Source: a phage
Direction: 5' to 3' (one strand)
DNA: 64,000 nt
Assembly (NCBI GenBank): GCA_036436775.1
Contig: GCA_036436775.1_3676.1
The notes under the pieces were generated by a model. That model searched no databases, was not told where the DNA came from, and saw nothing but the letters and a program-made list of their open reading frames with translations. How positions within the stretch are numbered: position 1 is the first letter of the stretch; the number at the start of each line of letters is the position of its first letter. A program made the position numbers and the translations under genes. This document shows positions 11,223 to 31,745 of the stretch, in pieces.

Positions 11223-11593
11223 TGATCGGTCTCCCTCTTGTTAAGTCTGAATACTGCAATAATAGCATTCCCAAGGTGCAGTGTCAAGTCATTTCCAAGA
11301 TACCACAGCATCCCACGGTCATCTTTAATGAAAGGGTAACAATCTGGTGCCTTCCAGACATTGTACACTTTCCCAACCTGAAAGAAATCAGGCCCTGTTG
11401 GGATTTTGGTACCAGGCCACACTTGAGATACCTGAACACACTCCACCTGCATAATAACAGGAATAGTCATGGATGTAAATGTTTTTGTTGGTTCTACTAC
11501 CATAAAAGTTTCCTCTTTGCTTAACAGCACCTCCCTGTGCTGATAGTTTACATTAGTGACAATCACCCCAGTTACGACCACACAAGTATTCAC
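11219..11593 (-). CDS. hypothetical protein (124 aa; 5' end uncertain)
   Basis: ORF-track start overlaps polymerase exon 2 by 41 nt, so the true start is probably internal. Confidence 0.4.
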   Translation of the reverse strand: MNTCVVVTGVIVTNVNYQHREVLLSKEETFMVVEPTKTFTSMTIPVIMQVECVQVSQVWPGTKIPTGPDFFQVGKVYNVWKAPDCYPFIKDDRGMLWYLGNDLTLHLGNAIIAVFRLNKRETDQ

Positions 11594-11906
11594 CTGTGAT
11601 CTGGAACGGGACTCCCATCATTTTAGAAGCTTGCCAGAAGCAATGCACCACCATTTCACCTACAGGGCTCCAGATAAGTTCAAGCTTTCCGTCATCGTTC
11701 AGGATAGGATCGTACACCGTGTTTCCGTCTCTGTCAACCACTTCGTTTCCGTCCTCATCCTTGCGTGCTTTTTTGTACTTATGACCGTCGAACACATGAA
11801 GTTTGGCCTCCTGCTCTGCCTTAAATGCTTCCAGTTCTTCAATTGTGTCGAAGGTGTACACAGTCTTATACTTCGGTGTGTCAGGGACTTGAAGTTGGTA
11901 CTCATC
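11553..11906 (-). CDS. DNA polymerase (family A), exon 2
   Basis: Begins DEYQLQV (completes motif C xHDE) and ends GRNWGDCH, the typical Pol A C-terminus (compare T7 ...GPNWAICH); boundary +/- a few nt. Confidence 0.7.
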   Translation of the reverse strand, partial: DEYQLQVPDTPKYKTVYTFDTIEELEAFKAEQEAKLHVFDGHKYKKARKDEDGNEVVDRDGNTVYDPILNDDGKLELIWSPVGEMVVHCFWQASKMMGVPFQITGEYLCGRNWGDCH

Positions 11907-12242
11907 CAATAGTTCAGGTAGGTCGTTAAGCTACCCCGCACCATTACGTGCATAGCCATACGTTTTCACGTAGGATCGGACCATCTCATATTCCTATGAT
12001 AAGCAACCACAGGAATCCTCCCATTTCGACCGCACTTGCTGGTCTACTTCCTTTCGGAATGGCCTCTGAGCGTTCGCTCTTTTGAGCGCTTCGTTGCGGA
12101 TTACCTTGCCATAAGGTTTAGGCTTCCCGCAGTTAAAGAGGTTATTCGACATAGATTACTCTATGAAGCCACAATGTTATTTATGGTAATAAATAATACG
12201 GCGAACACCTTCATCGTACCACCCACGCTTCACCATTTGGTG
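11907..12242 (-). mobile_element. group I intron (ORF-less, ~336 nt) in the DNA polymerase gene
   Basis: Minus strand carries core elements in order: P AACTGCGGGAAGCC (12121-12134), Q AATCCGCAAC (12093-12102), R-like GTAGACCAGC (12038-12047), S GAGATGGTCCGATCC (11974-11988); stop codons in all frames; ends in G. Confidence 0.6.
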
Positions 12243-14606
12243 GTGCATGAGTATCCCAACTAAGTCACACAGCGATGCACCACCATTCTGTTGGTATGCA
12301 TTAAGTAAAGAGTGTTTAGATCGGGTCCAGATAGCATGACCATCAAAAGAGTAGATAAACTTCTTACCAGTTGCTTCCCAGAATTTCTCCAGATCCTCTT
12401 TGCGCCCCTTAAGACCGGGGTTGGCATCCCAAAGCGCATCGATTACCCTTTGTCCCAACTCTGGAGAGATGTCCAGCATATCTGCAACTTTATCTTTTTG
12501 TGCCCCGTACATAACCCCATACGTGATAGGTTTACCGTCGTTACGGGACACCTCTCTACCTGCTACTTTCGTATATGCCTCAGCATTGTTTTGGTGTGCA
12601 TCTCCGTTACTTACAACATCGTAATACAGGCCGTTGTCGAACTCAAAGGCACCCCAAGCCCCGATAAGCTGCTCTAAGTTGGACCCGTCAATACCGATCT
12701 CAAAGTATCCTGGAGGAACACCCCACAAGCTACGCATCTCTTTACCCATAACCACTTTAGGAGATGGTTTAGGCATGTTTGCACAAATACTGTGTTTCTG
12801 TCTGGAAGTGTTTGTCAGCCCAGAACTTTTAGCAGGAAGCTTATGGTCAATCTTCAAACGTGGGTGATTAAGAAGACCAGTATCAACCTTATCCTCCTTG
12901 ATTGGATCAAGGACCGATCTGCGGTTTCGCAATGATAACCACAAGACGATATCTTTAGCCATCTCTCCGTTCAATTTTTCAAGATTCGGACACAGGTGTC
13001 CAAACGTATCTTTCAGTTGCGGAGAAGTAATAAGTGCTCTGGCTTTTCTACGTATTTTCCCGAATACTTCCTTTTTAATCCTTTCAGAGTTAGGAAAGCT
13101 TCGGAACTTGTGCACAGTTGTCTGGAACTTGGCATCAGTTTTGTTCCAGAAGTTGATAATCAGGTCACAATACTCTGACTCTAAAAGCTCGTCCATATAT
13201 GCATATACTCGTGCATCAACATCCGCATCAGGTAGAGCTTTCTTCTTGCTATCTTTAGTTACATCTTTAGTTCTCCACATTGTCGGTAGCCAGCCAGCAC
13301 TGATCAGATACCGCTTAATGTCGTCCTGATTGCTGATTTTCATAGGTATCTTGCAGTCCGGCATTCGCTTCTGCTGTAGATCACTTATTGCCTGATCCAT
13401 CAGCTCTTTAGGCAAAGGGTGGGGTGTGGAAGTGCCCTTAATATAGCCTCTCAAGAAATCAGCCATCTTATCGGGGTCTTTGCAGCCCATCTCTTCACAC
13501 CATTTTATCCCTATCTTGCTGACATCCCCTGTAGAGGTAAATGCTCGCTTAGGCGGGGCTTTGAACTCTAAAGCGCTCATGTCTACAGGATAGCCAAGCT
13601 TATCTTTTAACCATTTCCAACCATTATTAGAGATTGTCCCGTCTTGGTTAAACGGCTTTTCAGGGAACTTGGGCCGCTGAGACATTGACAGCTCTTTTAA
13701 AGGCAGCTGTGGTTCAACACGATCAGCGATTTCTTTCATCCACGCATCGCAACGGTCACGTAAAGCAATAGCTCCATCTATGTCGAAGTATACACCCTGA
13801 CGGGCCTGCAGCTCCATCAGGAAGTGCTGCAGCATGCCTCGACGTAGTGCGTTCTTCCAGGTGATCTTCTTGAACCCTTTCGGCTTCTCTTTGGCTGGAT
13901 CGTACATAAAGTTCTGCATGTCAGATTTGCCGTAGAATACACCTTTTGATTCCGCTACCAGCTCTTTCCAGAGCAGCTCCTGGATGATAACGTCCTCGAA
14001 TACACGATCCACATACTTCCACAACGGAAGATCGCGCCAGTCATCAATTTGAACTTTCTGGTTACCAAGGGCGTAGCCCCATGCCATAAGGCCGTGAGGA
14101 CCAACGGGCTGCATTTTCTTAGTAACCGGGTTGAATACAGAATCCGGACAACCTTTTGGTAAAGGGCGATCAGGCCACAAGATTCGGCTCATCGCCAACG
14201 TATCAAACAGATTAACCTGGTGGTCGTTGATAGTCCCCATACACTTAGGGTCACGGAACATATCAAAATGAATACCGGATAATCTTTCCATCAGCATAAA
14301 GTCATAACTGTAGCAGTTATGGCAGTTCAAAGCTGTTGGTGACCAGTCAGAATTTCCTGTAAGCCAACCTTCCAACTCCGAAAAATCTGCTATGCGAACT
14401 TCAAAATCTTTATAAAGAGTTTTCTTTGCCAGAATAAAGTTCTTAGCCTTCTCTATATCCTCTTCAGAGTAGTGTGTGCGGTCATTTAGAGGAAGGAACA
14501 GCATAAAACGGTTCTTATTCAGCTCTTTAAACAAGCCGCAGTGATAATAAAGATCTAGGTCTTCTAGTAAACCAGAGGCCTCAAGGTCGAAAGACCACAT
14601 ACTCAT
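12243..14606 (-). CDS. DNA polymerase (family A, T7/Pol I-like, with 3'-5' exonuclease), exon 1
   Basis: Exo I FDLEASG near the N-terminus; motif B RNDGKPITYGVMYGAQ; ends ...LVGILMH just before the intron (ORF track reads 22 codons into the intron). Confidence 0.8.
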
Positions 14607-17511: not shown

Positions 17512-17542
17512 ATGCAAAAAGCCCCACCCTTTCGGGCAGGGC
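17512..17542 (-). terminator. rho-independent terminator (hairpin family A, copy 2)
   Basis: Same hairpin as 7098-7119, followed on the minus strand by CTTTTTGCATT. Confidence 0.6.
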
Positions 17543-17548
17543 CTAGTG

Positions 17549-18439: not shown

Positions 18440-18741
18440 CAGAAACCTCCAACTTCTTCAGCAAATGCAGCTGCTGTCGTCGCTGCATCCAGATAGGACT
18501 CTAGTTCACGGGCTGCACGTTTGTAAATTGAGTGGCGCATATCGTTTGGTAGTTGGTGGAAGTCCACCTCTTCACCGTTGTGGTAAACACGCACATCGGT
18601 AATTTGTCTAAATCCGTAATAGTCAACATCAGAGTCACGGCACTCCGAGTCTGGCAACTGGACAACTGCTTGAGCTTCCACAGTAAACATATCGTCAAGT
18701 TCGAAATCGATTTCAAAAGTGTATGGTTTATAACGTTTCAT
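18439..18741 (-). CDS. hypothetical protein (100 aa)
   Basis: ORF in array, coupled start. Confidence 0.5.
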   Translation of the reverse strand: MKRYKPYTFEIDFELDDMFTVEAQAVVQLPDSECRDSDVDYYGFRQITDVRVYHNGEEVDFHQLPNDMRHSIYKRAARELESYLDAATTAAAFAEEVGGF

Positions 18742-18801
18742 CGTTTAGTGCTTCCTTAGTTTTTGTGGGGAGGAGTGCCTCCCCTTTAGACTAACATCTT
18801 A

Positions 18802-19143
18802 CTACTGAAGGTCTTCAGAGTCAAGCTCAAAAAGAATCAAACTGTGCATGCTTGCAGAGAGATCAACGCACCCTGCAATAATAAGGGTCTGATAGTAAGG
18901 TTCAGCACCCTCAATGTCTTCGTTAAAATCTACAACAAGATAGTCACCTTTGTTAAAGGTGTATTTGTCCGATGTAAACGCAAAACCTGCCCAGTCCCCT
19001 ACTGCAGGATCTTTATCAGTCACCTTTGTTAGCAGTAGGTCTTTTTCACGAGATCTTTTAGTAAAATCGTGAATCACAACATCCTTCTCTTCAGGAGTTG
19101 GACTACCACACACGTAGTTAACTATATTTCTCCACAAACTCAT
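18802..19143 (-). CDS. hypothetical protein (113 aa)
   Basis: ORF in array. Confidence 0.5.
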   Translation of the reverse strand: MSLWRNIVNYVCGSPTPEEKDVVIHDFTKRSREKDLLLTKVTDKDPAVGDWAGFAFTSDKYTFNKGDYLVVDFNEDIEGAEPYYQTLIIAGCVDLSASMHSLILFELDSEDLQ

Positions 19144-20510
19144 ACGTCCCCCTCTTCTGCTCTGGTTTCAAAATCTTTCCTGACAATTTTGTCTAAGTCA
19201 GGGAATGTTGTATTGTAAAACTCTACGACTCGCGGGTCAACAATAATATCAACTTCTCTTAGTGGACGCAACAAGTTTATCCCTTGTATTGTCTTAACTC
19301 GACTCAAAGCAACATACGTCATCCCAGGAGAGAAAGCTCCGTTCTTTCCAAGGTCTAGGTTGTAACAATCTAGCGTAAGTCCTTGACTTTTATGAGATGT
19401 TACGGCGTACCCAGATTTTAGAGGAAGTTGCTTGTATGACCCAATCACCACCCTCTCTATAAACTTCTCCATCTTCCTTTCTGCAATGTTGTATCTTTGA
19501 GATGGCTTATACTCGTTATTCTCCCACAACCTTTGCTCTATGTCAACCTGTGTTCCATCTTCAAGCTCCACCACCACCGCCTTGTTCTTAAATTTAACAA
19601 TTGTGGCACGTGTTCCGTTAACATAATAAGGTACTTTGTGCGTCGGGTCAACATCGTTGGCGGTTATCATAACCTTCATGCCAATTTTCAACTTCATCTC
19701 CTGCTCAACTGGCAGGGTGGAGGGAAACTTACCTTTCATTTCACCAGTGTATACCTTTTCTGGGGCGTTGATGGCATCATAGAACCTTCTGTTCACTTCC
19801 TCCGCTTGTTTGTTGGTGGCGCAAATTGTGAGAGCGTCTGTTGGTACACCGCCTTTGTAACAACGAGCATTAAGTTCTGCTACAACCTCTTTTATGCGAC
19901 GACCCTCACGAACACAGTTGAGCATTGTGGCAAATCGAATAGACTCCTGTCGGAACTGATCTACTAGGGCTATGTTGTGGAGGTCAAGCTCTTTCCAAGA
20001 TTCGGTATAGCAACACAGGTCCGTATGGTAGAAGTTGAAGTAGGCTTCCTTCTCCATAGAAGAGACAACAGGAGGTGCTTGGTAAAAATCGCCAAACAAT
20101 ATGACCTGTATGCCTCCGAAAGGTTTGTCATTTTTTCGAAGGAAGCGGAGTTTCCTATCCATCTCTATAAACTTATCAGCACGAATCATAGAGATTTCAT
20201 CGATAATTAGGATGGTAAATGCCTTGCTTTTCAAAGGCTTTGCTGTTTTTGCCCTTATTGCAGTCCAGTCTGACTCCATGCTCACACCTGCTGCAAGATC
20301 GAATGTTCGGTGTGCTGTTGCTCCATTAACGTTTAATGCGGCTACCCCTGTCGGGGCAACCGTTATGCAAGAGTCTCCATACATGGACTGGATCATGTTG
20401 ATGAGATACGTCTTCCCACAACCTGCGGGTCCTGAAACGAAGACATTCTCACCGCTCATGATTGCAATGAGGGCAGCATCTGTGCCTACGTCATACTGCC
20501 CTTTTTCCAT
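19140..20510 (-). CDS. SF1 DNA helicase, Dda/RecD/Pif1-like
   Basis: Walker A VSGPAGCGKTYL, Walker B LIIDEISM, C-terminal AVTSHKSQGLTLD. Confidence 0.75.
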   Translation of the reverse strand: MEKGQYDVGTDAALIAIMSGENVFVSGPAGCGKTYLINMIQSMYGDSCITVAPTGVAALNVNGATAHRTFDLAAGVSMESDWTAIRAKTAKPLKSKAFTILIIDEISMIRADKFIEMDRKLRFLRKNDKPFGGIQVILFGDFYQAPPVVSSMEKEAYFNFYHTDLCCYTESWKELDLHNIALVDQFRQESIRFATMLNCVREGRRIKEVVAELNARCYKGGVPTDALTICATNKQAEEVNRRFYDAINAPEKVYTGEMKGKFPSTLPVEQEMKLKIGMKVMITANDVDPTHKVPYYVNGTRATIVKFKNKAVVVELEDGTQVDIEQRLWENNEYKPSQRYNIAERKMEKFIERVVIGSYKQLPLKSGYAVTSHKSQGLTLDCYNLDLGKNGAFSPGMTYVALSRVKTIQGINLLRPLREVDIIVDPRVVEFYNTTFPDLDKIVRKDFETRAEEGDV

Positions 20511-21715
20511 TACGCCTCCTCGTAGATAATGTCGATGATGTTACCATCACGGTCAACTACGTATTCAATCGGATCGCCATCTTTGCGTGATTCCGGTGCT
20601 GCTACGATTTCGTAGCGGCATGCACGGCACTTAGCACTGTTGTGTTGGTATGGCACACTAACCACATCCGCAGGGTCAACCATAACCATCATTACGGTGC
20701 CATAGCCAGCTGCATACTCTTTGCTGGCGCAGTGCAGGCCATAAGAACACGCAGCTTCCGGATCATCTTCTACAAAGTTACGAGGCATGGATACAAAAGC
20801 ACCCTGGTATTGTGGAACTTTACCGCTGTGCCAATCCACCCACTTGCCTCCGTTAAACTGAACCCCTTTATAGCAAATGATTCGACCATCTTCTGCAACC
20901 TGGATGTCATTAGCCTGCATGAAATCGTAGAGCATGTTCACAGATTTTGCAGACGGGTTGCGTAGCAGACGGACAAGGAATTTAACATATCGGTCGTCCA
21001 GTGTTCCATCTACATAATCTTCCTCAATTTTCTTTGCAATGGTAGATTGCATCTCTACACCGTAGTAATAGAGCTTACCATCTTTCATAATCAGGTTGTC
21101 TGCAAGTGTAGTGAACTCATTCTTGCGTTCCAACCAGACAAGGATTTCACCAATTGCCTCGTCATATTTCTGAACAGAGATATGGTCGAAGACTTTCTGG
21201 TAAACTTCCTCACTTTCACTGCGGCGAATTTCAAAAATACCTTCGTTGCAGGTGATCTGGAGAAGTTCTCCACAAATAACTACTAAAGGCTCTATGCTTC
21301 GAGTCTGTTGTTGAGACACACTGCTTACCACCTCCAGCACCGGATCTTTGACTTCTACTGAAGGTTCTTCTGACTTGATTGCTACTCCAGTGAACCCCAC
21401 ACCGTGAACAACGCACAGTGGGTATACCACACTCCAACGTTTAACGGAACCTTCTCCTGAATCTAAGATCATGGCGTACTTACCGTTGTCTTCCAGTCCG
21501 TAGCGGAATAAACGGGCCTCTTCGCGGGTTTCAAAATCCTCACGGGTATAGCAGACACTATCTCGGTCAGGATCAAACAGCTCTGGGGCACCCACTGCCA
21601 GTGTCCATGTTGTAGTACCTTTCTCAATAGCACATGTGAAACCCTTCTTCTCAAGTTCTGCACGGCGGTCGCGTGCTTCTTTACGAGTTTTGAAATGTTC
21701 GTAGATGAAAATCAT
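20510..21715 (-). CDS. hypothetical protein (401 aa) with duplicated N-terminal ~45 aa module
   Basis: Internal repeat KEARDRRAELEKKGF / REEARLFRYGLEDNG; coupled to flanking genes; no catalytic motif recognised. Confidence 0.5.
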   Translation of the reverse strand: MIFIYEHFKTRKEARDRRAELEKKGFTCAIEKGTTTWTLAVGAPELFDPDRDSVCYTREDFETREEARLFRYGLEDNGKYAMILDSGEGSVKRWSVVYPLCVVHGVGFTGVAIKSEEPSVEVKDPVLEVVSSVSQQQTRSIEPLVVICGELLQITCNEGIFEIRRSESEEVYQKVFDHISVQKYDEAIGEILVWLERKNEFTTLADNLIMKDGKLYYYGVEMQSTIAKKIEEDYVDGTLDDRYVKFLVRLLRNPSAKSVNMLYDFMQANDIQVAEDGRIICYKGVQFNGGKWVDWHSGKVPQYQGAFVSMPRNFVEDDPEAACSYGLHCASKEYAAGYGTVMMVMVDPADVVSVPYQHNSAKCRACRYEIVAAPESRKDGDPIEYVVDRDGNIIDIIYEEA

Positions 21716-21725
21716 AGCTGTCTCC

Positions 21726-23708
21726 TTATTTGGTGTTATTCTTTGCGTCGATCAGTTCACGGTATTCAATCATAGCAGGAGTGTCCCAATATTTCAAGCC
21801 TGCATGCTTCAAAAGTGGATATTTCTTTTCCAATCTTGCAATATAGGCCTTCCCGCACTTGACTCGGTTGGCGATTAAGATTTTGGCACGATGATTTAGC
21901 TCACTGTGCTTCCACGTGGTGTTACCTTCCCACTTGTGGAAATGTGGCCGATAATTTCCAAAATCTTGCATGGGAATAATTTTCCCTAATTGTCTATACA
22001 GGCTGTCATAAGAAGTCTCATTTGCTGCACGGGTCAGTAAGAATTTCCAAGCATCCTCTTTCAACAGGTGCTCCACATTCTTCTCTGTAACATACTGGCA
22101 ATCAGGATCAGTCCAAAGCAGACGAGATTCAGATACCAGATACAGATCTTCACCTTCAGGAATCTGAAGTGCCGCACGCACACGGTCATAATCTTGCTGG
22201 TAGATGTTACTCATCTGCCCCAGCCAACAACTTCCACGTTGGATATCACCCTCATAAGGGATGCAGTGTTTAATCTTCCGGAACTCTGCCTTAGTAATAC
22301 GCTCACGGCGGAAGTAACCATCCTTTTCAAGTTTTTTAACCCAATAACCTGGCTCATAACGAGTTTTTGTTTCACCTTTCTTGACAGGTCGGCGAGGGAG
22401 CTCTGATAACAATTTGACCGTATCTGCAAAGAACGGGTGGTGTGCCGCTTCTTTAAACTCTTCCACCAGATCCGTGTTCCGGCAATAGAAAACGTTGCGT
22501 CCGGTGATCTCGCTTAAATAGTTGCACTTATTTCGGTTATATTTGCCGTCTCCGTCGTTAAATACTAAATAGACTCCCCGTAAGAACTCTGACTTTCCGT
22601 AACGAGCATAGCCTATGCGGCCCTTATTTAAGCCGCCAGCGAAAATTTCACAATCGCCTAAGTCACCAAGCCCTGTTTCTTCCCAACGGTTCCACATAAA
22701 GTTTTTGCCGAAGATGTGTCCGAACACACCACTATTCTTCATCATTTCACGTGCTTCTGCGGAGGTTTTTGCCGTCTCCAGTTCTGCAACAACTTCTGCC
22801 CCGCGAAGACGTATACCTTCTTTGACAAAGGCCTCCAGGCGATCCTGGAATCCACCGTCGTCATGGCCCTCTATGGTCCATTCGCGCCCAGGGTTAATAT
22901 TGCAATCCCCGATAGGGATCTCTACACAGATTGCAGGGTAGTCTGTCAATGTTTCCAGAAACTTAGAGCGGTAAGGTTGGTGTCCCATCACCACACGGCT
23001 CTCATCAGAGCTGGTATAACCTTTCAGGATAGTCATTTTCCAACCATCTTTCTCGTAGCGATACTGCGCCTCAACCTTGTCACCTTCCAGCATCTTACTG
23101 GTCATAGGGTCGGTAACGGTAAACGGAAACTTTGCATAGCGTAGGCATGACGCAATAGCAGTGCGATATTTCAGAACATGCTCTTTCTTAACATGGAACT
23201 GAACTTTTACCCCGTTGTGCTCTTCAGTCTTCCGCTCGCGGATCTTGGTAACGTTTGGGATACCCTGATCCAAGAACAACAGATATGTGCTTTCAACACC
23301 GTTGTGCACACTGATCACATCGAAAGTGTCCACCATGCTGAACGGGGCCTTTGAACCTACACCTTTATTACCTACCAGAGCGTTGCTGTTGCGCTTGGTT
23401 GACTCCCCGAGGTTCATGAAAGTGTTGCGGACCATCTCTTCTGACATGCCCAATCCAACATCCTGCACAAAGAAGTATGGTTCAAGGTCTGTAGGAGAGT
23501 GAATGATGATCGGTACATCACCCCGTCCAGACTCAACATGGGAGTCCACAGCATTGAAGATTGGTTCACGGCAGCTTGCCAGCACCTTATCTTCGTAAAT
23601 CCCTTTAATGATTAGCCCAAAAGTCTCTTTGTTCAGAGAAATTGAGCCCCTGGTGACCTCCATATTTCCGGTCAGTACTGCTTTAGTTTCATTACTGTTT
23701 ACAATCAT
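21726..23708 (-). CDS. GHKL-superfamily ATPase (Bergerat fold) with uncharacterised ~450 aa C-terminal region
   Basis: N-box REPIFNAVDS, G1 box DVGLGMS, G2 box GNKGVGSKA in the first ~150 aa; no Toprim, MutL or kinase partner motifs in the canonical order. Confidence 0.5.
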   Translation of the reverse strand: MIVNSNETKAVLTGNMEVTRGSISLNKETFGLIIKGIYEDKVLASCREPIFNAVDSHVESGRGDVPIIIHSPTDLEPYFFVQDVGLGMSEEMVRNTFMNLGESTKRNSNALVGNKGVGSKAPFSMVDTFDVISVHNGVESTYLLFLDQGIPNVTKIRERKTEEHNGVKVQFHVKKEHVLKYRTAIASCLRYAKFPFTVTDPMTSKMLEGDKVEAQYRYEKDGWKMTILKGYTSSDESRVVMGHQPYRSKFLETLTDYPAICVEIPIGDCNINPGREWTIEGHDDGGFQDRLEAFVKEGIRLRGAEVVAELETAKTSAEAREMMKNSGVFGHIFGKNFMWNRWEETGLGDLGDCEIFAGGLNKGRIGYARYGKSEFLRGVYLVFNDGDGKYNRNKCNYLSEITGRNVFYCRNTDLVEEFKEAAHHPFFADTVKLLSELPRRPVKKGETKTRYEPGYWVKKLEKDGYFRRERITKAEFRKIKHCIPYEGDIQRGSCWLGQMSNIYQQDYDRVRAALQIPEGEDLYLVSESRLLWTDPDCQYVTEKNVEHLLKEDAWKFLLTRAANETSYDSLYRQLGKIIPMQDFGNYRPHFHKWEGNTTWKHSELNHRAKILIANRVKCGKAYIARLEKKYPLLKHAGLKYWDTPAMIEYRELIDAKNNTK

Positions 23709-24205
23709 TTATTGCGCTCCTTGTAGTAGATATGGCTCCCGAATTGAGCTGTCCTCTGCATCTTTTTTGCCCATTTCGGTCGTACTTTGGTTGTATGGTA
23801 GTGTGTTGCTCCACATGTTATATCCATAGCCATGTATGCAACATGGTTGTTATTATAGACCTTTAGAAGCATCTTTGCAAGACTTTTAGCGTGATCCCAT
23901 GAATCTTTTTCTGTCACCTTAAAAGTTTTGCCGTAGTTTGTCCACGAAAACTGATTAGGTTGGTAGACAATCTTTCTTATAGTGTCTGGGTATTTGGGAT
24001 GAGATTTCCTGTTTAGGGTGGCAAACCCAGATGCCAGCATACCCATCGTGCCATCCCCTCTAGCTTCCCTGTAGATATTGCATGCTAGAATGTTTTCCTT
24101 AGTATCTGATGGCTTGCAAGTATGGTATACTTTTTGTTTTGGTGCTGCAACAACAGGCAGCGATAAAAATGCGCTCAAAATAATAGCAAAGATCTTAATT
24201 TTCAC
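23705..24205 (-). CDS. secreted cell wall hydrolase, SleB (Hydrolase_2) family; candidate signal-peptide endolysin
   Basis: N-terminal signal peptide MKIKIFAIILSAFLSLPVVAAP; ACNIYREARGDG...ATLNR...IVYQPNQFSW matches the SleB-type signature. Confidence 0.55.
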   Translation of the reverse strand: MKIKIFAIILSAFLSLPVVAAPKQKVYHTCKPSDTKENILACNIYREARGDGTMGMLASGFATLNRKSHPKYPDTIRKIVYQPNQFSWTNYGKTFKVTEKDSWDHAKSLAKMLLKVYNNNHVAYMAMDITCGATHYHTTKVRPKWAKKMQRTAQFGSHIYYKERNK

Positions 24206-24211
24206 AATAAC

Positions 24212-24240
24212 TCCAAATAGAAAATCCCCGCCGAAGCGGG
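24212..24240 (-). terminator. rho-independent terminator (hairpin family B, copy 1)
   Basis: Minus strand CCCCGCTTCGGCGGGG (UUCG-type loop) followed by ATTTTCTATTT. Confidence 0.55.
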
Positions 24241-24253
24241 GTGGTCTTAGAAA

Positions 24254-24643: not shown

Positions 24644-25828
24644 TTAAGCTTTAGCCAAAATGGCGCTAAACTCTTCACCAAACTCTTTTACAATCTTCAT
24701 CAGGTTTGGGTATGCTTTGATCAGCTGAGCAACAATCTTGTCACGACCTTTACCGATAAGCAAGGCATTTCCTAAGGCATTAGGTTTCATCATCGCCATA
24801 AAGACTGAGAATACAAAATCTCGGTTCTCGTCCTTGAAGTTTTCCCAAAGGAAATCGAGGAAGTTTGCCACGCAGCTGACAAGATCTTCGTCTGAGATAC
24901 TTGCATTTTCCATCATATTACGAATAGCGATACAACCTTCAGATCCAAGAATCCACAAGATGTCTGGCTGTTTAGGACCTACGTATTCTTTGCAACCTCC
25001 TGCCATAATCCGACCGATTTCCGGTAAGTTGCGTTTCTTGGTGTGGTAAGTCCAGATCTCTACCGCTGCAGTGTGACCAATAGCGCCTTGCAGAAGAACA
25101 CGGGCCATAGCGTCAGAAATAATACCACTGTCAAAATCGTGCAAAATATCAGATGCAGCAACCCAAGATCGCGGTGTGGCAAAAGATGGACAATTAATCT
25201 CAGCCATGGCCTCATAATTATCGATAGCTGATGGAACTCTTTTCAGATATCCAATTACAGAGGAGTGCACCCCATTAAGGAATGCGTAGTCCTCAATAAA
25301 CACCTCTGCATTGCTTGTAACTTCTACAATGATAAAACGGTTAGCCAGAGGGGCTTCGAGCGCCGAAAGAACCGCACCATCTGTAGAACGGTTACCAGCA
25401 GCCACAAAAACAGAGCCTTTAGGGAATGCATAGGTGCCGCACTTGTGGTCGAGCATAATTTGCATTGCAACCTTTTGCAGGTAGTTATCTGCATGAGTGA
25501 GCTCATCAAGAAAGATAATTCCGCTCCAGTCAGGATCCGCAGGCCAAAATTCTGGAATTGCAAACACTGTACGTGTAGTTCCATCCGCTTCTACAGGGAT
25601 AGGTAGCCCAGATAAGTCGGCAGGATCTTTATCTGACAGCCGCACGTCAACTAGGTTGTCATCTCGCTCACCGAACATATTGTCGGCGATCTGCTTCATC
25701 ACCTGGCTCTTTCCCACGCCCATTGGTCCTAAAATCAGGACAGATCGGTTATGACGCTGGGCAAACTGAATGATAGCTGGCAACTCACGGACAGTGATTT
25801 GACCACTTTCAAATACGTTTCTTGACAT
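24644..25828 (-). CDS. MoxR-class AAA+ ATPase (AAA_5-type; CobS/CbbQ/NorQ-like)
   Basis: Walker A LILGPMGVGKSQV, Walker B IIFLDELTHAD, sensor FVAAGNRS; single AAA module of ~390 aa. Confidence 0.6.
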   Translation of the reverse strand: MSRNVFESGQITVRELPAIIQFAQRHNRSVLILGPMGVGKSQVMKQIADNMFGERDDNLVDVRLSDKDPADLSGLPIPVEADGTTRTVFAIPEFWPADPDWSGIIFLDELTHADNYLQKVAMQIMLDHKCGTYAFPKGSVFVAAGNRSTDGAVLSALEAPLANRFIIVEVTSNAEVFIEDYAFLNGVHSSVIGYLKRVPSAIDNYEAMAEINCPSFATPRSWVAASDILHDFDSGIISDAMARVLLQGAIGHTAAVEIWTYHTKKRNLPEIGRIMAGGCKEYVGPKQPDILWILGSEGCIAIRNMMENASISDEDLVSCVANFLDFLWENFKDENRDFVFSVFMAMMKPNALGNALLIGKGRDKIVAQLIKAYPNLMKIVKEFGEEFSAILAKA

Positions 25829-26097
25829 TAGTAAAAGTCCTCTACTTGTGTGTAAGTGTTTTCAAAGTTTTCCAAAACAGATATCACATCGGATATGTCA
25901 ATATCATACGTGACTCTCCAGTTGTACGCAACCCTTTCTGCTGTTGCCTCTTCTGGCGCTAGTCGTCTGCTGGCATAAAAGAGTGTTGGAGTACACTTTC
26001 TTGCTTGCCCTCTAACTTTCCCATAATAATATCTGTGAATATCTTTGTCAAAATTTAACTCTTTTTCTGCACGAAGTTCATATTGCTGGTATAACAT
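25828..26097 (-). CDS. hypothetical protein (89 aa)
   Basis: ORF in array. Confidence 0.45.
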   Translation of the reverse strand: MLYQQYELRAEKELNFDKDIHRYYYGKVRGQARKCTPTLFYASRRLAPEEATAERVAYNWRVTYDIDISDVISVLENFENTYTQVEDFY

Positions 26098-28395: not shown

Positions 28396-28408
28396 CACGT
28401 TTTTGATG

Positions 28409-28437
28409 TTGACATCTATTGAAACAATTGATACGAT
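28409..28437 (+). promoter_or_regulatory. sigma70-like promoter, rightward member of divergent pair
   Basis: TTGACA (28409-28414), 17 nt spacer, TACGAT (28432-28437); -35 overlaps palindrome GTCAACA-N-TGTTGAC. Confidence 0.5.
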
Positions 28438-28468
28438 TTCTTCACTTACAGAGCACGAGAGACAACTC

Positions 28469-29446
28469 ATGAATCTTGAAAAATATTATACACCAGAAGA
28501 GTTAGAGCGCCTGCTCAAAAAATATAGACGCAAACAGAATAATGCACGGAAACGAGATATAGAGTTCGACCTGTCATGGGAAGAATACCTCCTATTTGGT
28601 AAAAAACTTTTAGGAGATGGAGTATGCGACTATACCCTTATACCTTTTGACATGCACACAGATGAAAACGGGCTGGGAAATCCTTTCTACCCATCTCTGG
28701 AGCGGATAGATGATGAAGGTCCTTATGCGGTTGATAACTGTTGTGTGGTGGGATTGAGATGCAACTCTCTAAAGGACTGTCTGGTAGATAAAAAGACTGC
28801 AGTCTCGATTAAAGACGAAACTGATCGAAAAATTGTCCAGCAGATGATGCTCCACCTGAGCGAAGAGCGTATGGAGAAATTGAAAGGTGATTATACTTTT
28901 GAAGATTTCATCTTGCAATATGGAACGGAAGAGGATAAACTAGCACTCTTTGACGAAGAAGAGGAGGAAGATATGCTACCGATGTCTAAAGTTACTTATC
29001 GTGCACCCAAGAAGCACATTTCCGACATTGTAAACGAGCCTATCACAGAAGAGATTGAAGAAATGACGCAACAGGTGCATGAAGAGGAAAAAGAGACTCA
29101 GTGGGTCGAAGAGGAGCTTACAGAAGAGGTTCCTGCACTACCTGATGATGTTGAGATTGCCAAAGCTTACACTTTCTATTGTCAAGCGTTCTACGATGTA
29201 GGTATGAAAGTTGATCTGTCGTTCAGCCAATTTAAGAGTTCGTATATTCGCAAATGCTGTGCTTTAACTGGTGAACGTCTTGGAGCTGGACTTAAACCCC
29301 TGTTGGTGACCGACTGGAATAAAGGTTTCACTAAAGGAAACTTTATGGTAGTATCTCCAATTATGGAGAAAGCTATGACAGATCTCATGAAGACCACCCG
29401 CATGACAATGACCGAGTTGGCAGGTATTTTCAAACACGTTAAATAA
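28469..29446 (+). CDS. HNH/His-Me-finger endonuclease-like domain fused in frame to a C-terminal domain that begins MSKVTYRA
   Basis: SLERIDDEGPYAVDNCCVVGLRCNSLK resembles the (S/L)DRID..GY..N...C..CN..K signature of phage HNH-type endonucleases; start moved to ATG 28469 downstream of the promoter; internal ATG 28982 with RBS GAGGAGGA lies in the 27 bp repeat. Confidence 0.4.
   Translation: MNLEKYYTPEELERLLKKYRRKQNNARKRDIEFDLSWEEYLLFGKKLLGDGVCDYTLIPFDMHTDENGLGNPFYPSLERIDDEGPYAVDNCCVVGLRCNSLKDCLVDKKTAVSIKDETDRKIVQQMMLHLSEERMEKLKGDYTFEDFILQYGTEEDKLALFDEEEEEDMLPMSKVTYRAPKKHISDIVNEPITEEIEEMTQQVHEEEKETQWVEEELTEEVPALPDDVEIAKAYTFYCQAFYDVGMKVDLSFSQFKSSYIRKCCALTGERLGAGLKPLLVTDWNKGFTKGNFMVVSPIMEKAMTDLMKTTRMTMTELAGIFKHVK
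28979..29005. repeat. 27 bp perfect inverted repeat, right copy
   Basis: CCGATGTCTAAAGTTACTTATCGTGCA, identical to the reverse complement of 27115-27141. Confidence 0.85.
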
Positions 29447-29479: not shown

Positions 29480-30940
29480 ATGGATAGCAGAAGTTCAGAA
29501 ATCATTGCCTCACAGAAAGATGATGCCTTGAGAATGTTGCAGGCTGCACGTATGTATCTCCTTGAAAAGCTGCCGTTTTATGGCACACTACTGTCAGGGT
29601 TGCAGTTCGTAGAAAACCACACATGGTGCTCCACCATGGCAACCGACCATAAACGCATCTATTACAGTCCTGAGTTCATTATGGGATTGGCTGATGAACG
29701 CAAGGCTATTCTTAAGGCTTCTCTGACTGACGAGCAGTTTGAGATGGCTGAAGTTTTCTATTCCCCAAAATCTGTGAAAGAGGTGGCCTTCCTTCTGTCA
29801 CATGAGGTGGGGCATATTATCTGTGATCACCTAGTCCGTGGTAAAAGCTTTGAGCCGGAACTGTTCAATATTGCTTGTGATCACGTTATCAACACAGGTC
29901 TTGTGGTTGACTTTAGCAAGCCTCCTTGTGTTTTCTTCCCGAAGGGGAAAAGCACTACGTTCGTGAAAGGTAAACCTTTTGGCTTCTTAGCCAGCTGCTA
30001 CTGCGATATGAAGTTTCATGGATGGATTGCTGAGAACGTTTATGCAGTTCTTGATAAGCAAAGAGATCAGAATAACGGTAAAAGTAAGAACGGTAAAGGT
30101 GAGAACTCTCAAGGGGATAAGCGACAAACAGATGATCACATGAGTGGGAACGGTGGCACCAGTGATGATCTTGGAAAAGCTATGGGGTATGATCAGCCAC
30201 AACCTGTAATCAGCCAATCTGATAAAGATCAGGCCATGCAGGACTCTGGTGATATGCTGGAGGCAGCAATGCAAGCGTCCGGAGGCCGTTGCCCTGAGGC
30301 GGTGCGTGAGTTTGTCAAGAACAGAGGTAAGCCTGTAATCAACTATATAGACATCATTAAGCAACGCATGTTGTCTAAACGAAAGGCTGAACTGACCTAC
30401 AGAAAACCTGGTCGCCGATCTGGGTCTTTGACCAGCACAATGCGAAAAGTTGGGGCTATAAACAAGAACCAGCACGTTATTGTTCCTGGTCGTAATCCGG
30501 AAAACACTATAGATATTGTGGTGGCTTTAGACGTTTCTGGCTCGATCTCTCAAAGAACTTTAAAGAAAATGTTCAATGAAATCACCGGATTGTGCAATCT
30601 GTATAAAGAGTTTAAGGTTACAATGTTCTGTTGGTCAACTGAGGTTGGAGAGGTTAAAGTATACACTCGCGGCAACATAGACGAGATGATTAACTATGAG
30701 GTCCACTCAACATGGGGCACAACAGCTGCTTGCGTGTTCGAGTATCTGGATGCCAACATACCGAATGCAAAAGATGTCATCGTCCTGACCGACCTATACT
30801 TTGAGCATAACTTTGAACAAAAGGCTGTTGACAACAAGTGGAAAAAGTACGATACTTTATGGGTTCTCACTGAAGGGTATAATAAAAATTATATCCCGAG
30901 CTTTGGGAAAACTGTGGAATTAATCGAGTACGCTAAGTAA
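29480..30940 (+). CDS. HExxH metallopeptidase-like + von Willebrand factor A (VWA) domain protein
   Basis: LLSHEVGHIICDHL (HExxH) in the N-terminal half; MIDAS-type VVALDVSGSIS in the C-terminal half; start moved to ATG 29480 (RBS GGAG). Confidence 0.55.
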   Translation: MDSRSSEIIASQKDDALRMLQAARMYLLEKLPFYGTLLSGLQFVENHTWCSTMATDHKRIYYSPEFIMGLADERKAILKASLTDEQFEMAEVFYSPKSVKEVAFLLSHEVGHIICDHLVRGKSFEPELFNIACDHVINTGLVVDFSKPPCVFFPKGKSTTFVKGKPFGFLASCYCDMKFHGWIAENVYAVLDKQRDQNNGKSKNGKGENSQGDKRQTDDHMSGNGGTSDDLGKAMGYDQPQPVISQSDKDQAMQDSGDMLEAAMQASGGRCPEAVREFVKNRGKPVINYIDIIKQRMLSKRKAELTYRKPGRRSGSLTSTMRKVGAINKNQHVIVPGRNPENTIDIVVALDVSGSISQRTLKKMFNEITGLCNLYKEFKVTMFCWSTEVGEVKVYTRGNIDEMINYEVHSTWGTTAACVFEYLDANIPNAKDVIVLTDLYFEHNFEQKAVDNKWKKYDTLWVLTEGYNKNYIPSFGKTVELIEYAK

Positions 30941-30955
30941 GAGAGGAGGTTATTT

Positions 30956-31219
30956 ATGGCAACAGAGTTAAAATTTGCATCAAACCGTAAAACTAAGAAG
31001 TATCTGTCCTCAGTGGCTCCAGGCACTGTGGTGATGTTTATTGATGAACTTGGGGATGTGAATACAGCACTTGTTGTAAAATCACATCCTGCAAACATAT
31101 ATGTTGGGGTATTTGACCTGTTCAGAAAGGTGTTTGTAGAACTACCTCACAGTTTGGTTGTTACAGAAATGGATGCCTGCATAGAAATTCTTGGCGAAGT
31201 TATGGTGGAGGAACAATAA
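30956..31219 (+). CDS. small protein, tandem paralog 1 of 4 (87 aa)
   Basis: MATELKFASNRKTKK...PGTVV...; RBS GAGGAGG; head-to-tail with the next three genes. Confidence 0.55.
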   Translation: MATELKFASNRKTKKYLSSVAPGTVVMFIDELGDVNTALVVKSHPANIYVGVFDLFRKVFVELPHSLVVTEMDACIEILGEVMVEEQ

Positions 31220-31482
31220 TGGCTACTAGCATTGTATTCAATTCTAAGGTGAAGAACAAAAAGCGTGCAGACAGTTTTCCGTGTGGGACCGTGGTAAGTT
31301 GCGACGGAGACGGCATTCAAAACATAGTTATGATTGTCAAAACAGGAGAACATTGTGTGTGGGGGTTCGATTTAGAAAATAATGAGTTGTACGATCTGCC
31401 GCCAAACATGAAAGTTACAGAGCTTGACACCAAAATTACCATCCTTGGAGAGACAAGCTATTCAAAAGAAGGAGGAGAATAA
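31219..31482 (+). CDS. small protein, tandem paralog 2 of 4 (87 aa)
   Basis: MATSIVFNSKVKNKK...CGTVV...; coupled start. Confidence 0.55.
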   Translation: MATSIVFNSKVKNKKRADSFPCGTVVSCDGDGIQNIVMIVKTGEHCVWGFDLENNELYDLPPNMKVTELDTKITILGETSYSKEGGE

Positions 31483-31745
31483 TGACCACAAAAATCACTA
31501 TCGCAGAGCCGAAAGCTAACACTCAGCCTATCGAAAAGTTTAAGTGCGGTGAGGTGGTAACATTCACACCAGATAATGAAGATGCTAAGATTTTCGCAAT
31601 GGTCACAGCTGAGTGGATGTGTGACAACACCACACAAGTACTACGTTTCGATACCTACCTCACAGATGAGATCCGAAACGATAAGATCGTGACAGGTGTG
31701 GACACTGAAATTATTTTCTACAAGAGCTTTTTAGAGGGTTTCTGA
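31482..31745 (+). CDS. small protein, tandem paralog 3 of 4 (87 aa)
   Basis: MTTKITIAEPK...CGEVV...; same length and pattern. Confidence 0.5.
   Translation: MTTKITIAEPKANTQPIEKFKCGEVVTFTPDNEDAKIFAMVTAEWMCDNTTQVLRFDTYLTDEIRNDKIVTGVDTEIIFYKSFLEGF

Follow-up and report, generated by a model that had tools for sequence, protein, structure and literature searches.

Why should a phage carry a GHKL-type ATPase among its replication genes, and what does that protein do together with the product of the gene directly behind it? The question is raised by two adjacent genes in a 64,000-nucleotide stretch of phage DNA (GenBank assembly GCA_036436775.1, contig GCA_036436775.1_3676.1), hereafter, over its whole length, the window. 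A sequence-only reading of the window had described a 660-residue ATPase with an unassigned C-terminal region, set in the context of a T7-like replisome and followed by a 401-residue protein with a duplicated N-terminus, and had suggested a DNA-manipulating or anti-defence enzyme. Both open reading frames (ORFs) lie where that reading placed them, at 21726..23708 (660 aa) and 20510..21715 (401 aa) on the minus strand, which also carries the rII block and its flanking genes and hairpins as described below. Our analysis identifies them as rIIA and rIIB, Vequintavirus orthologues of the classical T4-type genes, which are already known and annotated. We propose, with a probability of roughly 0.88, that their products constitute a two-protein counter-defence module that allows growth on hosts with RexAB-type abortive infection.

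Identity of the two proteins

The rIIA assignment extends over the whole of the 660-residue protein. Residues 1–656 match positions 1–722 of the 725 in the phrog_612 'RIIA' profile of PHROGs with E 2e-123; T4 rIIA also matches this profile over its full length, with E 9e-250. In direct comparison with the T4 reference (AF158101), BLASTP finds 28% identity over residues 1–190 (E 3e-21), and a profile built from 30 homologues aligns residues 1–306 with residues 1–310 of T4 rIIA at a probability of 99.9% (hhalign, E 9e-37). Foldseek comparison of the structure model with BFVD returns rIIA proteins only, with full-length alignment to T4-like rIIA at TMq values of up to 0.54. No significant match was seen in NCBIfam or PADLOC, and a sequence search of the PDB (phmmer) returned TRAP1 alone, at E 0.1.

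The downstream protein matches phrog_609 'RIIB' (E 2e-60), and its residues 172–371 are 36% identical to residues 107–304 of T4 rIIB (E 3e-38); by these sequence comparisons it is rIIB, with a conserved core standing behind a clade-specific N-terminus. A PDB sequence search with this protein gave nothing meaningful.

The source phage is a Vequintavirus, an rV5-like myovirus of some 137 kb. Over the rII block its DNA shares 98.3% identity with Escherichia phage MiataMamis and 97% with many Vequintavirus genomes. The records of these relatives label the genes rIIA and rIIB, 'protector from prophage-induced early lysis' or 'membrane integrity protector'. Against the Vequintavirus EdH4, rIIA is identical at 647 of 660 residues and rIIB at 391 of 401 (98% in both cases), and rIIB is 100% identical to that of MiataMamis. 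The T7-like setting read from the letters does not survive this placement, though the replisome does include a family-A polymerase and a DnaB-like primase/helicase.

The N-terminal ATPase module of rIIA

The first half of rIIA accounts for the ATPase motifs that had drawn attention to the locus. A Bergerat-fold (GHKL) ATP-binding domain, with N-box, G1, ATP lid and G2, occupies residues ~27–190 (23139..23630), and a transducer-like second domain with an invariant R275-E276 pair follows at residues ~191–310 (22779..23138). The N-box (CREPIFNAVD) has the form E48-x3-N52-x2-D55, G1 (QDVGLGM) the form D83-x-G85-x-G87, and G2 (GNKGVGSK) the form G113-x2-G116-x-G118; all of these residues are invariant in the 30 homologues, down to 18% identity, as are S103-T104-K105 of the lid and R275-E276 of the second domain. 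Pfam HATPase_c_3 matches residues 50–147 with E 2e-8, passing its cut-off, so the three motifs of the sequence-only reading stand. Structure comparison gives paired values of 19.4 and 304 for TRAP1/Hsp90, 17.1 and 266 for MORC2, 17.0 and 271 for the 43K fragment of ParE, 16.7 and 273 for the T6 topoisomerase II ATPase and 16.6 and 254 for the MutL N-terminal domain; for histidine kinases they are about 7–8 and about 100. On account of these values, we regard residues 1 to ~300 as a predicted complete two-domain GHL-type module, Bergerat plus transducer-like; it is this portion that T4 rIIA has in common. The conservation (M1, I2, I23) and low model confidence of the opening 25 residues would fit the strand-swapping arm of GHL dimers. 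A check of the gene for a homopolymer 'contingency locus' found a single A6 run, equal to background density.

An ATPase of this type might be a DNA-manipulating enzyme of the replication module: the ATPase subunit of a topoisomerase, a MutL-like repair factor, or a MORC-like clamp acting with the neighbouring helicase. Pfam searches of rIIA at E<=0.1 find no Toprim, DNA_gyraseB, MutL_C, HSP90 or kinase substrate domain, in agreement with what had been read from the letters, and neither an S5-type MORC extension nor a DNA-binding domain is detected by Pfam. As a type IIA topoisomerase B subunit (GyrB/ParE) the protein is rejected, having neither Toprim nor a gyrase-B transducer signature behind its ATPase; as a MutL it is rejected, the C-terminal dimerisation/endonuclease domain not being found. 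Structure model and Pfam alike show something other than an ordinary type II topoisomerase subunit or MutL homolog. Among sequence families rIIA matches best, ahead by over 100 orders of magnitude, and rII is dispensable for replication on Rex-free hosts in T4 and likewise in four other phages (Adler et al., 2025; see below). We give a replisome enzyme very little chance of being the explanation. An Hsp90-like chaperone, folding or stabilising phage proteins, was also considered; the NCBIfam HSP90 model scores 18 bits, against a cut-off of 455, the PDB match to TRAP1 noted above has E 0.1, and Pfam gives no HSP90 match. Membership of Hsp90 is rejected, and the chaperone reading has next to no chance.

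The C-terminal region of rIIA

The region described earlier as unassigned comprises residues 311–660 (21729..22778), an rIIA-specific and fast-evolving part of the protein. When the C-terminal 360 residues are scanned alone, residues 374–656 match positions 401–722 of phrog_612 (E 7e-19). This fragment thus finds the C-terminal part of the family profile, in keeping with the full-length match at E 2e-123, and the 'unassigned' region is therefore a divergent rIIA C-terminal region. Structure prediction and Foldseek bear out the two-domain GHL ATPase at the front and make the rest rIIA-type, full-length BFVD alignments being to rIIA only.

A single-sequence phmmer search of these 360 residues against 1.8 billion representatives recovered 10 proteins, all of the same architecture or fragments of it, and none in which the region stands in another architecture. 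No PDB match attributable to the region was found by sequence or structure searches. Of the 2877 phage records that match rIIA, just 186 reach a coverage of at least 80% of the protein, and the fast evolution of the C-terminal half accords with Iyer et al. Pfam DUF7003 matches weakly within the C-terminus, at E 0.009, under its cut-off.

rIIB and the rIIA-rIIB partnership

Three segments can be distinguished in rIIB. Residues 1–103 (21407..21715) are predicted, from self-similarity and from the model, to form two tandem beta-alpha-beta-beta modules that are specific to the clade; residues 104–141 (21293..21406) are a linker of variable length, with alignment indels and a predicted local distance difference test score below 50 at residues 101–141; and residues 142–390 (20546..21292) are the conserved rIIB core, which is without a solved structural relative. 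The duplication noticed earlier in the 401-residue protein is borne out: residues 1–25 and 55–79 are 44% identical (E 1e-4), and profile-profile comparison of module 1 with module 2 gives a probability of 92.5% and E 5e-7. Both modules carry the motif F-x-S/T-R-x-E/D-A-R ... W-x-V, conserved among relatives. In the model, module 1 has strands at 3–8, 27–32 and 37–42 with a helix at 11–23, and module 2 has strands at 54–61, 82–85 and 94–102 with a helix at 64–72.

Coverage of at least 80% of this rIIB is reached in 129 phage records only. T4 rIIB has at residues 5–81 a match to phrog_867 'DNA binding domain' (E 4e-5), and no PHROGs match of this kind, to a T4-type N-terminal DNA-binding (HTH-like; helix-turn-helix) region, is present in the 401-residue protein; the N-terminal region varies across rIIB and has no family-defining role. 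We considered a SPOR identity for the twin modules and rejected it, there being no Pfam SPOR match above cut-off that is conserved among relatives.

The pair is not an orphan, and its two genes travel together. Among 50,697 phage records, 2877 have a match to rIIA and 2865 one to rIIB, with nearly equal counts by host genus (rIIA/rIIB: Escherichia 925/929, Klebsiella 376/379, Streptomyces 93/93, Aeromonas 81/81). Within the window the rIIA stop codon (TAA) is followed by a 10-nt spacer at 21716..21725, GGAGACAGCT, which contains a Shine-Dalgarno-like GGAG, and then by the rIIB ATG. In phage RB43 (NC_007023.1; BFVD Q56C47) the two are naturally fused in one protein of 1049 aa, with a matched stretch at 31–531 in our search. 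Because RB43 encodes this fusion, phrog_609 'RIIB' covers both proteins, including the N-terminus of rIIA. Since the two genes co-occur, keep a fixed order, lie close together and are naturally fused in RB43, we infer that their products work as a single complex; the idea that the ATPase works with the protein encoded downstream of it was right, and the partner is rIIB. The genes for rIIB and the helicase overlap in TAATG; those for rIIA and rIIB are close-packed without overlap.

A probable counter-defence function

The evidence for function comes from published work on related phages. Adler et al., 2025 (PMC11879866) knocked down RIIA or RIIB in T4, MM02, EdH4, SUSP1 and N4; they report unaffected growth on Rex-free E. 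coli and less efficient plating where lambda RexAB was expressed. In transposon screens in T4 the rII genes prove essential only under certain conditions, when RexAB is present or in some clinical isolates, and the RIIA/B orthologues of Bas37 matter in clinical isolates. Genes 84/85 of Bas63, which are RIIA/B homologues, have been discussed in the context of qatABCD defence, and T6 RIIB triggers CARD-gasdermin systems (PMC10312443). The anti-defence half of the earlier suggestion matches this knowledge of the rII family; nothing supports its other half, a DNA-manipulating role in the replisome.

It could be argued that lysis timing or membrane energetics is the primary role of the pair, and that the Rex sensitivity of mutants is a side effect. 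PHROG and GenBank labels ('lysis inhibitor', 'membrane integrity protector') are worded in this sense, T4 rII mutants lyse E. coli B rapidly (PMC12633550), T6 RIIB expressed alone is toxic to E. coli, and the rIIA gene shares the sequence ATGA with an overlapping cell-wall hydrolase gene, labelled endolysin in one record. Such a role is hard to square with the five-phage knockdown and its lack of effect on Rex-free hosts, or with the conditional essentiality seen in the transposon screens. Nor does either protein have a clear transmembrane segment, the Kyte-Doolittle maximum over 19 residues reaching 0.83 in rIIA and 1.67, a borderline value, in rIIB. We hold a primary lysis role to be improbable; like the replisome-enzyme and chaperone alternatives, it is weakly supported.

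Several points weigh against the reading of rIIA and rIIB as a counter-defence module. The functional evidence is from relatives of this exact phage, and the text of PMC11879866 reports the five phages collectively. Very few wild-type phages are affected by RexAB in BASEL, and RexAB may therefore not be the natural target. Several recent papers describe the molecular mechanism of rII as still unsolved, and our literature search found no structural or mechanistic paper on rIIA or rIIB. ATP hydrolysis and dimerisation of rIIA, and its binding to rIIB, are inferred. Pairwise BLAST detects no similarity between the C-terminal half of rIIA and T4 rIIA, and the homology of this half to T4 is distant, as indicated by profile and fold-level evidence.

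With these points in mind, we propose the following model for the counter-defence module. By analogy with GyrB, MutL, Hsp90 and MORC, rIIA would bind and hydrolyse ATP, and bound ATP would make its N-terminal domains dimerise; judging from the GHL families, R275 may serve as gamma-phosphate sensor. rIIA and rIIB would then operate as a single ATP-driven complex that blocks RexAB-type abortive infection. That this complex would stop activation of the RexA sensor / RexB membrane effector, rather than repair the membrane later, is a guess to which we give somewhat less than even odds. The variable rIIA C-terminus and rIIB N-terminus may, speculatively, be lineage-specific contact surfaces. A bolder version would make the rIIA C-terminal half, which single-sequence search finds in this clade alone, and the twin-module N-terminus of rIIB interchangeable specificity modules on a conserved ATP-driven core, with Vequintavirus rII recognising another trigger or defence than T4 rII. 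We consider this unlikely; if true, Vequintavirus rIIB might escape, or differently trigger, systems that sense rIIB, such as CARD-gasdermin.

Genomic context

On the minus strand the gene order is hydrolase, rIIA, rIIB, helicase, tightly packed. The cell-wall hydrolase gene (23705..24205, 166 aa) matches Pfam Hydrolase_2 with E 3e-18, and the Pif1/Dda-like superfamily 1 helicase gene (19140..20510, 456 aa) matches Pfam PIF1 (E 1e-32) and phrog_325 (E 3e-111). A consensus scan places terminator-like hairpins on both sides of this block: one upstream at 24226..24241, a putative operon boundary, and one downstream at 17519..17544, with an 11-bp stem and a T-run, a putative operon end. The EdH4 record annotates a terminator at the matching place for the first and at the equivalent site for the second; in the same scan, counts of promoter-like and terminator-like sites show no excess over chance. 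Two genes upstream of rIIA lies a gene for a MoxR-like AAA ATPase (24644..25828, 394 aa), overlapped by a small ORF at 25828..26097; this pair (24644..26097) has no Pfam match at E<=1e-5 and weak PADLOC matches only.

Elsewhere the window differs from its relatives in places. A putative N6-adenine methyltransferase gene of ~1.3 kb is present in CarlMeissner and EdH4 (L001 7276-8601; L006 27087-28412), between ORFs of 113 and 100 aa and three genes downstream of rIIB, and is absent from the window (~18741-18802) and from MiataMamis. The DNA polymerase gene is divided by a 276-bp insertion at 11907-12182 into an 809-aa ORF (12177..14606) and a 118-aa ORF (11553..11909). The insertion has no internal ORF, is not present in MiataMamis, EdH4 or CarlMeissner, and corresponds to the Rfam group I intron RF00028 (11957-12192, minus strand, full model, 64.7 bits against a gathering threshold of 50, E 7e-16). 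A copy with 100% identity occurs in rV5 and in about 23 further Vequintavirus records, which annotate the polymerase as split or flanked by 'hypothetical proteins'; present in some records and absent from others, the intron is thus polymorphic within the genus and seems to have escaped annotation.

On the plus strand, three consecutive 264-nt ORFs and a fourth of 234 nt at 30956-31745 resemble tandem paralogues and are all annotated as hypothetical. The plus-strand genes at 28406-29446 and 29480-30940 are both labelled 'HNH endonuclease' in MiataMamis, as against 'anti-sigma factor' and 'putative metallopeptidase' in CarlMeissner, and the EdH4 notes give DUF2201_N. About 15 'Campylobacter phage' records (host C. 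jejuni, MG0656xx) are 97–100% identical to E. coli Vequintavirus in this part of the genome, a degree of sequence identity that points to mislabelling or phage contamination in that deposit.

Comparison with known systems

Within the genus the rII genes show essentially no difference: across EdH4, CarlMeissner/Bas48, MiataMamis and rV5 the DNA of the block is 97–98% identical and the proteins are 98–100% identical. As a discovery the locus therefore carries little weight, these being classical genes, annotated, and tested in a 98%-identical phage. The complete GHL unit, the R-E motif, the rIIB core and the clade-variable ends could guide work on the 70-year-old question of rII versus Rex, an opportunity that T4 already offers.

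Set beside the GHL and MORC-type ATPases (GyrB/ParE 43K, the MutL N-terminal domain, Hsp90 N+M, MORC2/3 and SMCHD1), rIIA lacks Toprim, MutL_C, Hsp90 M/C, CW and coiled coil; sequence identity to these proteins is 10–16%, and the partner of rIIA is rIIB rather than GyrA, MutS/MutH or co-chaperones.

The closest counterpart outside the genus is the T4 pair. The order rIIA-rIIB is the same, with a gap of 11 nt in T4 (from record coordinates) against 10 nt here, all GHKL motifs and the R-E motif are present in both rIIA proteins, and both match phrog_612 over their full length. The two differ in the C-terminal half of rIIA, which can be aligned at profile and fold level only, and in rIIB, which is 89 aa longer here and carries the predicted twin beta-alpha-beta-beta modules where T4 has a DNA-binding-domain-like region. 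The neighbours differ too: the hydrolase and the Pif1-like helicase flank the pair in the window, whereas in T4 their places are taken by topoisomerase gene 60 and denB.

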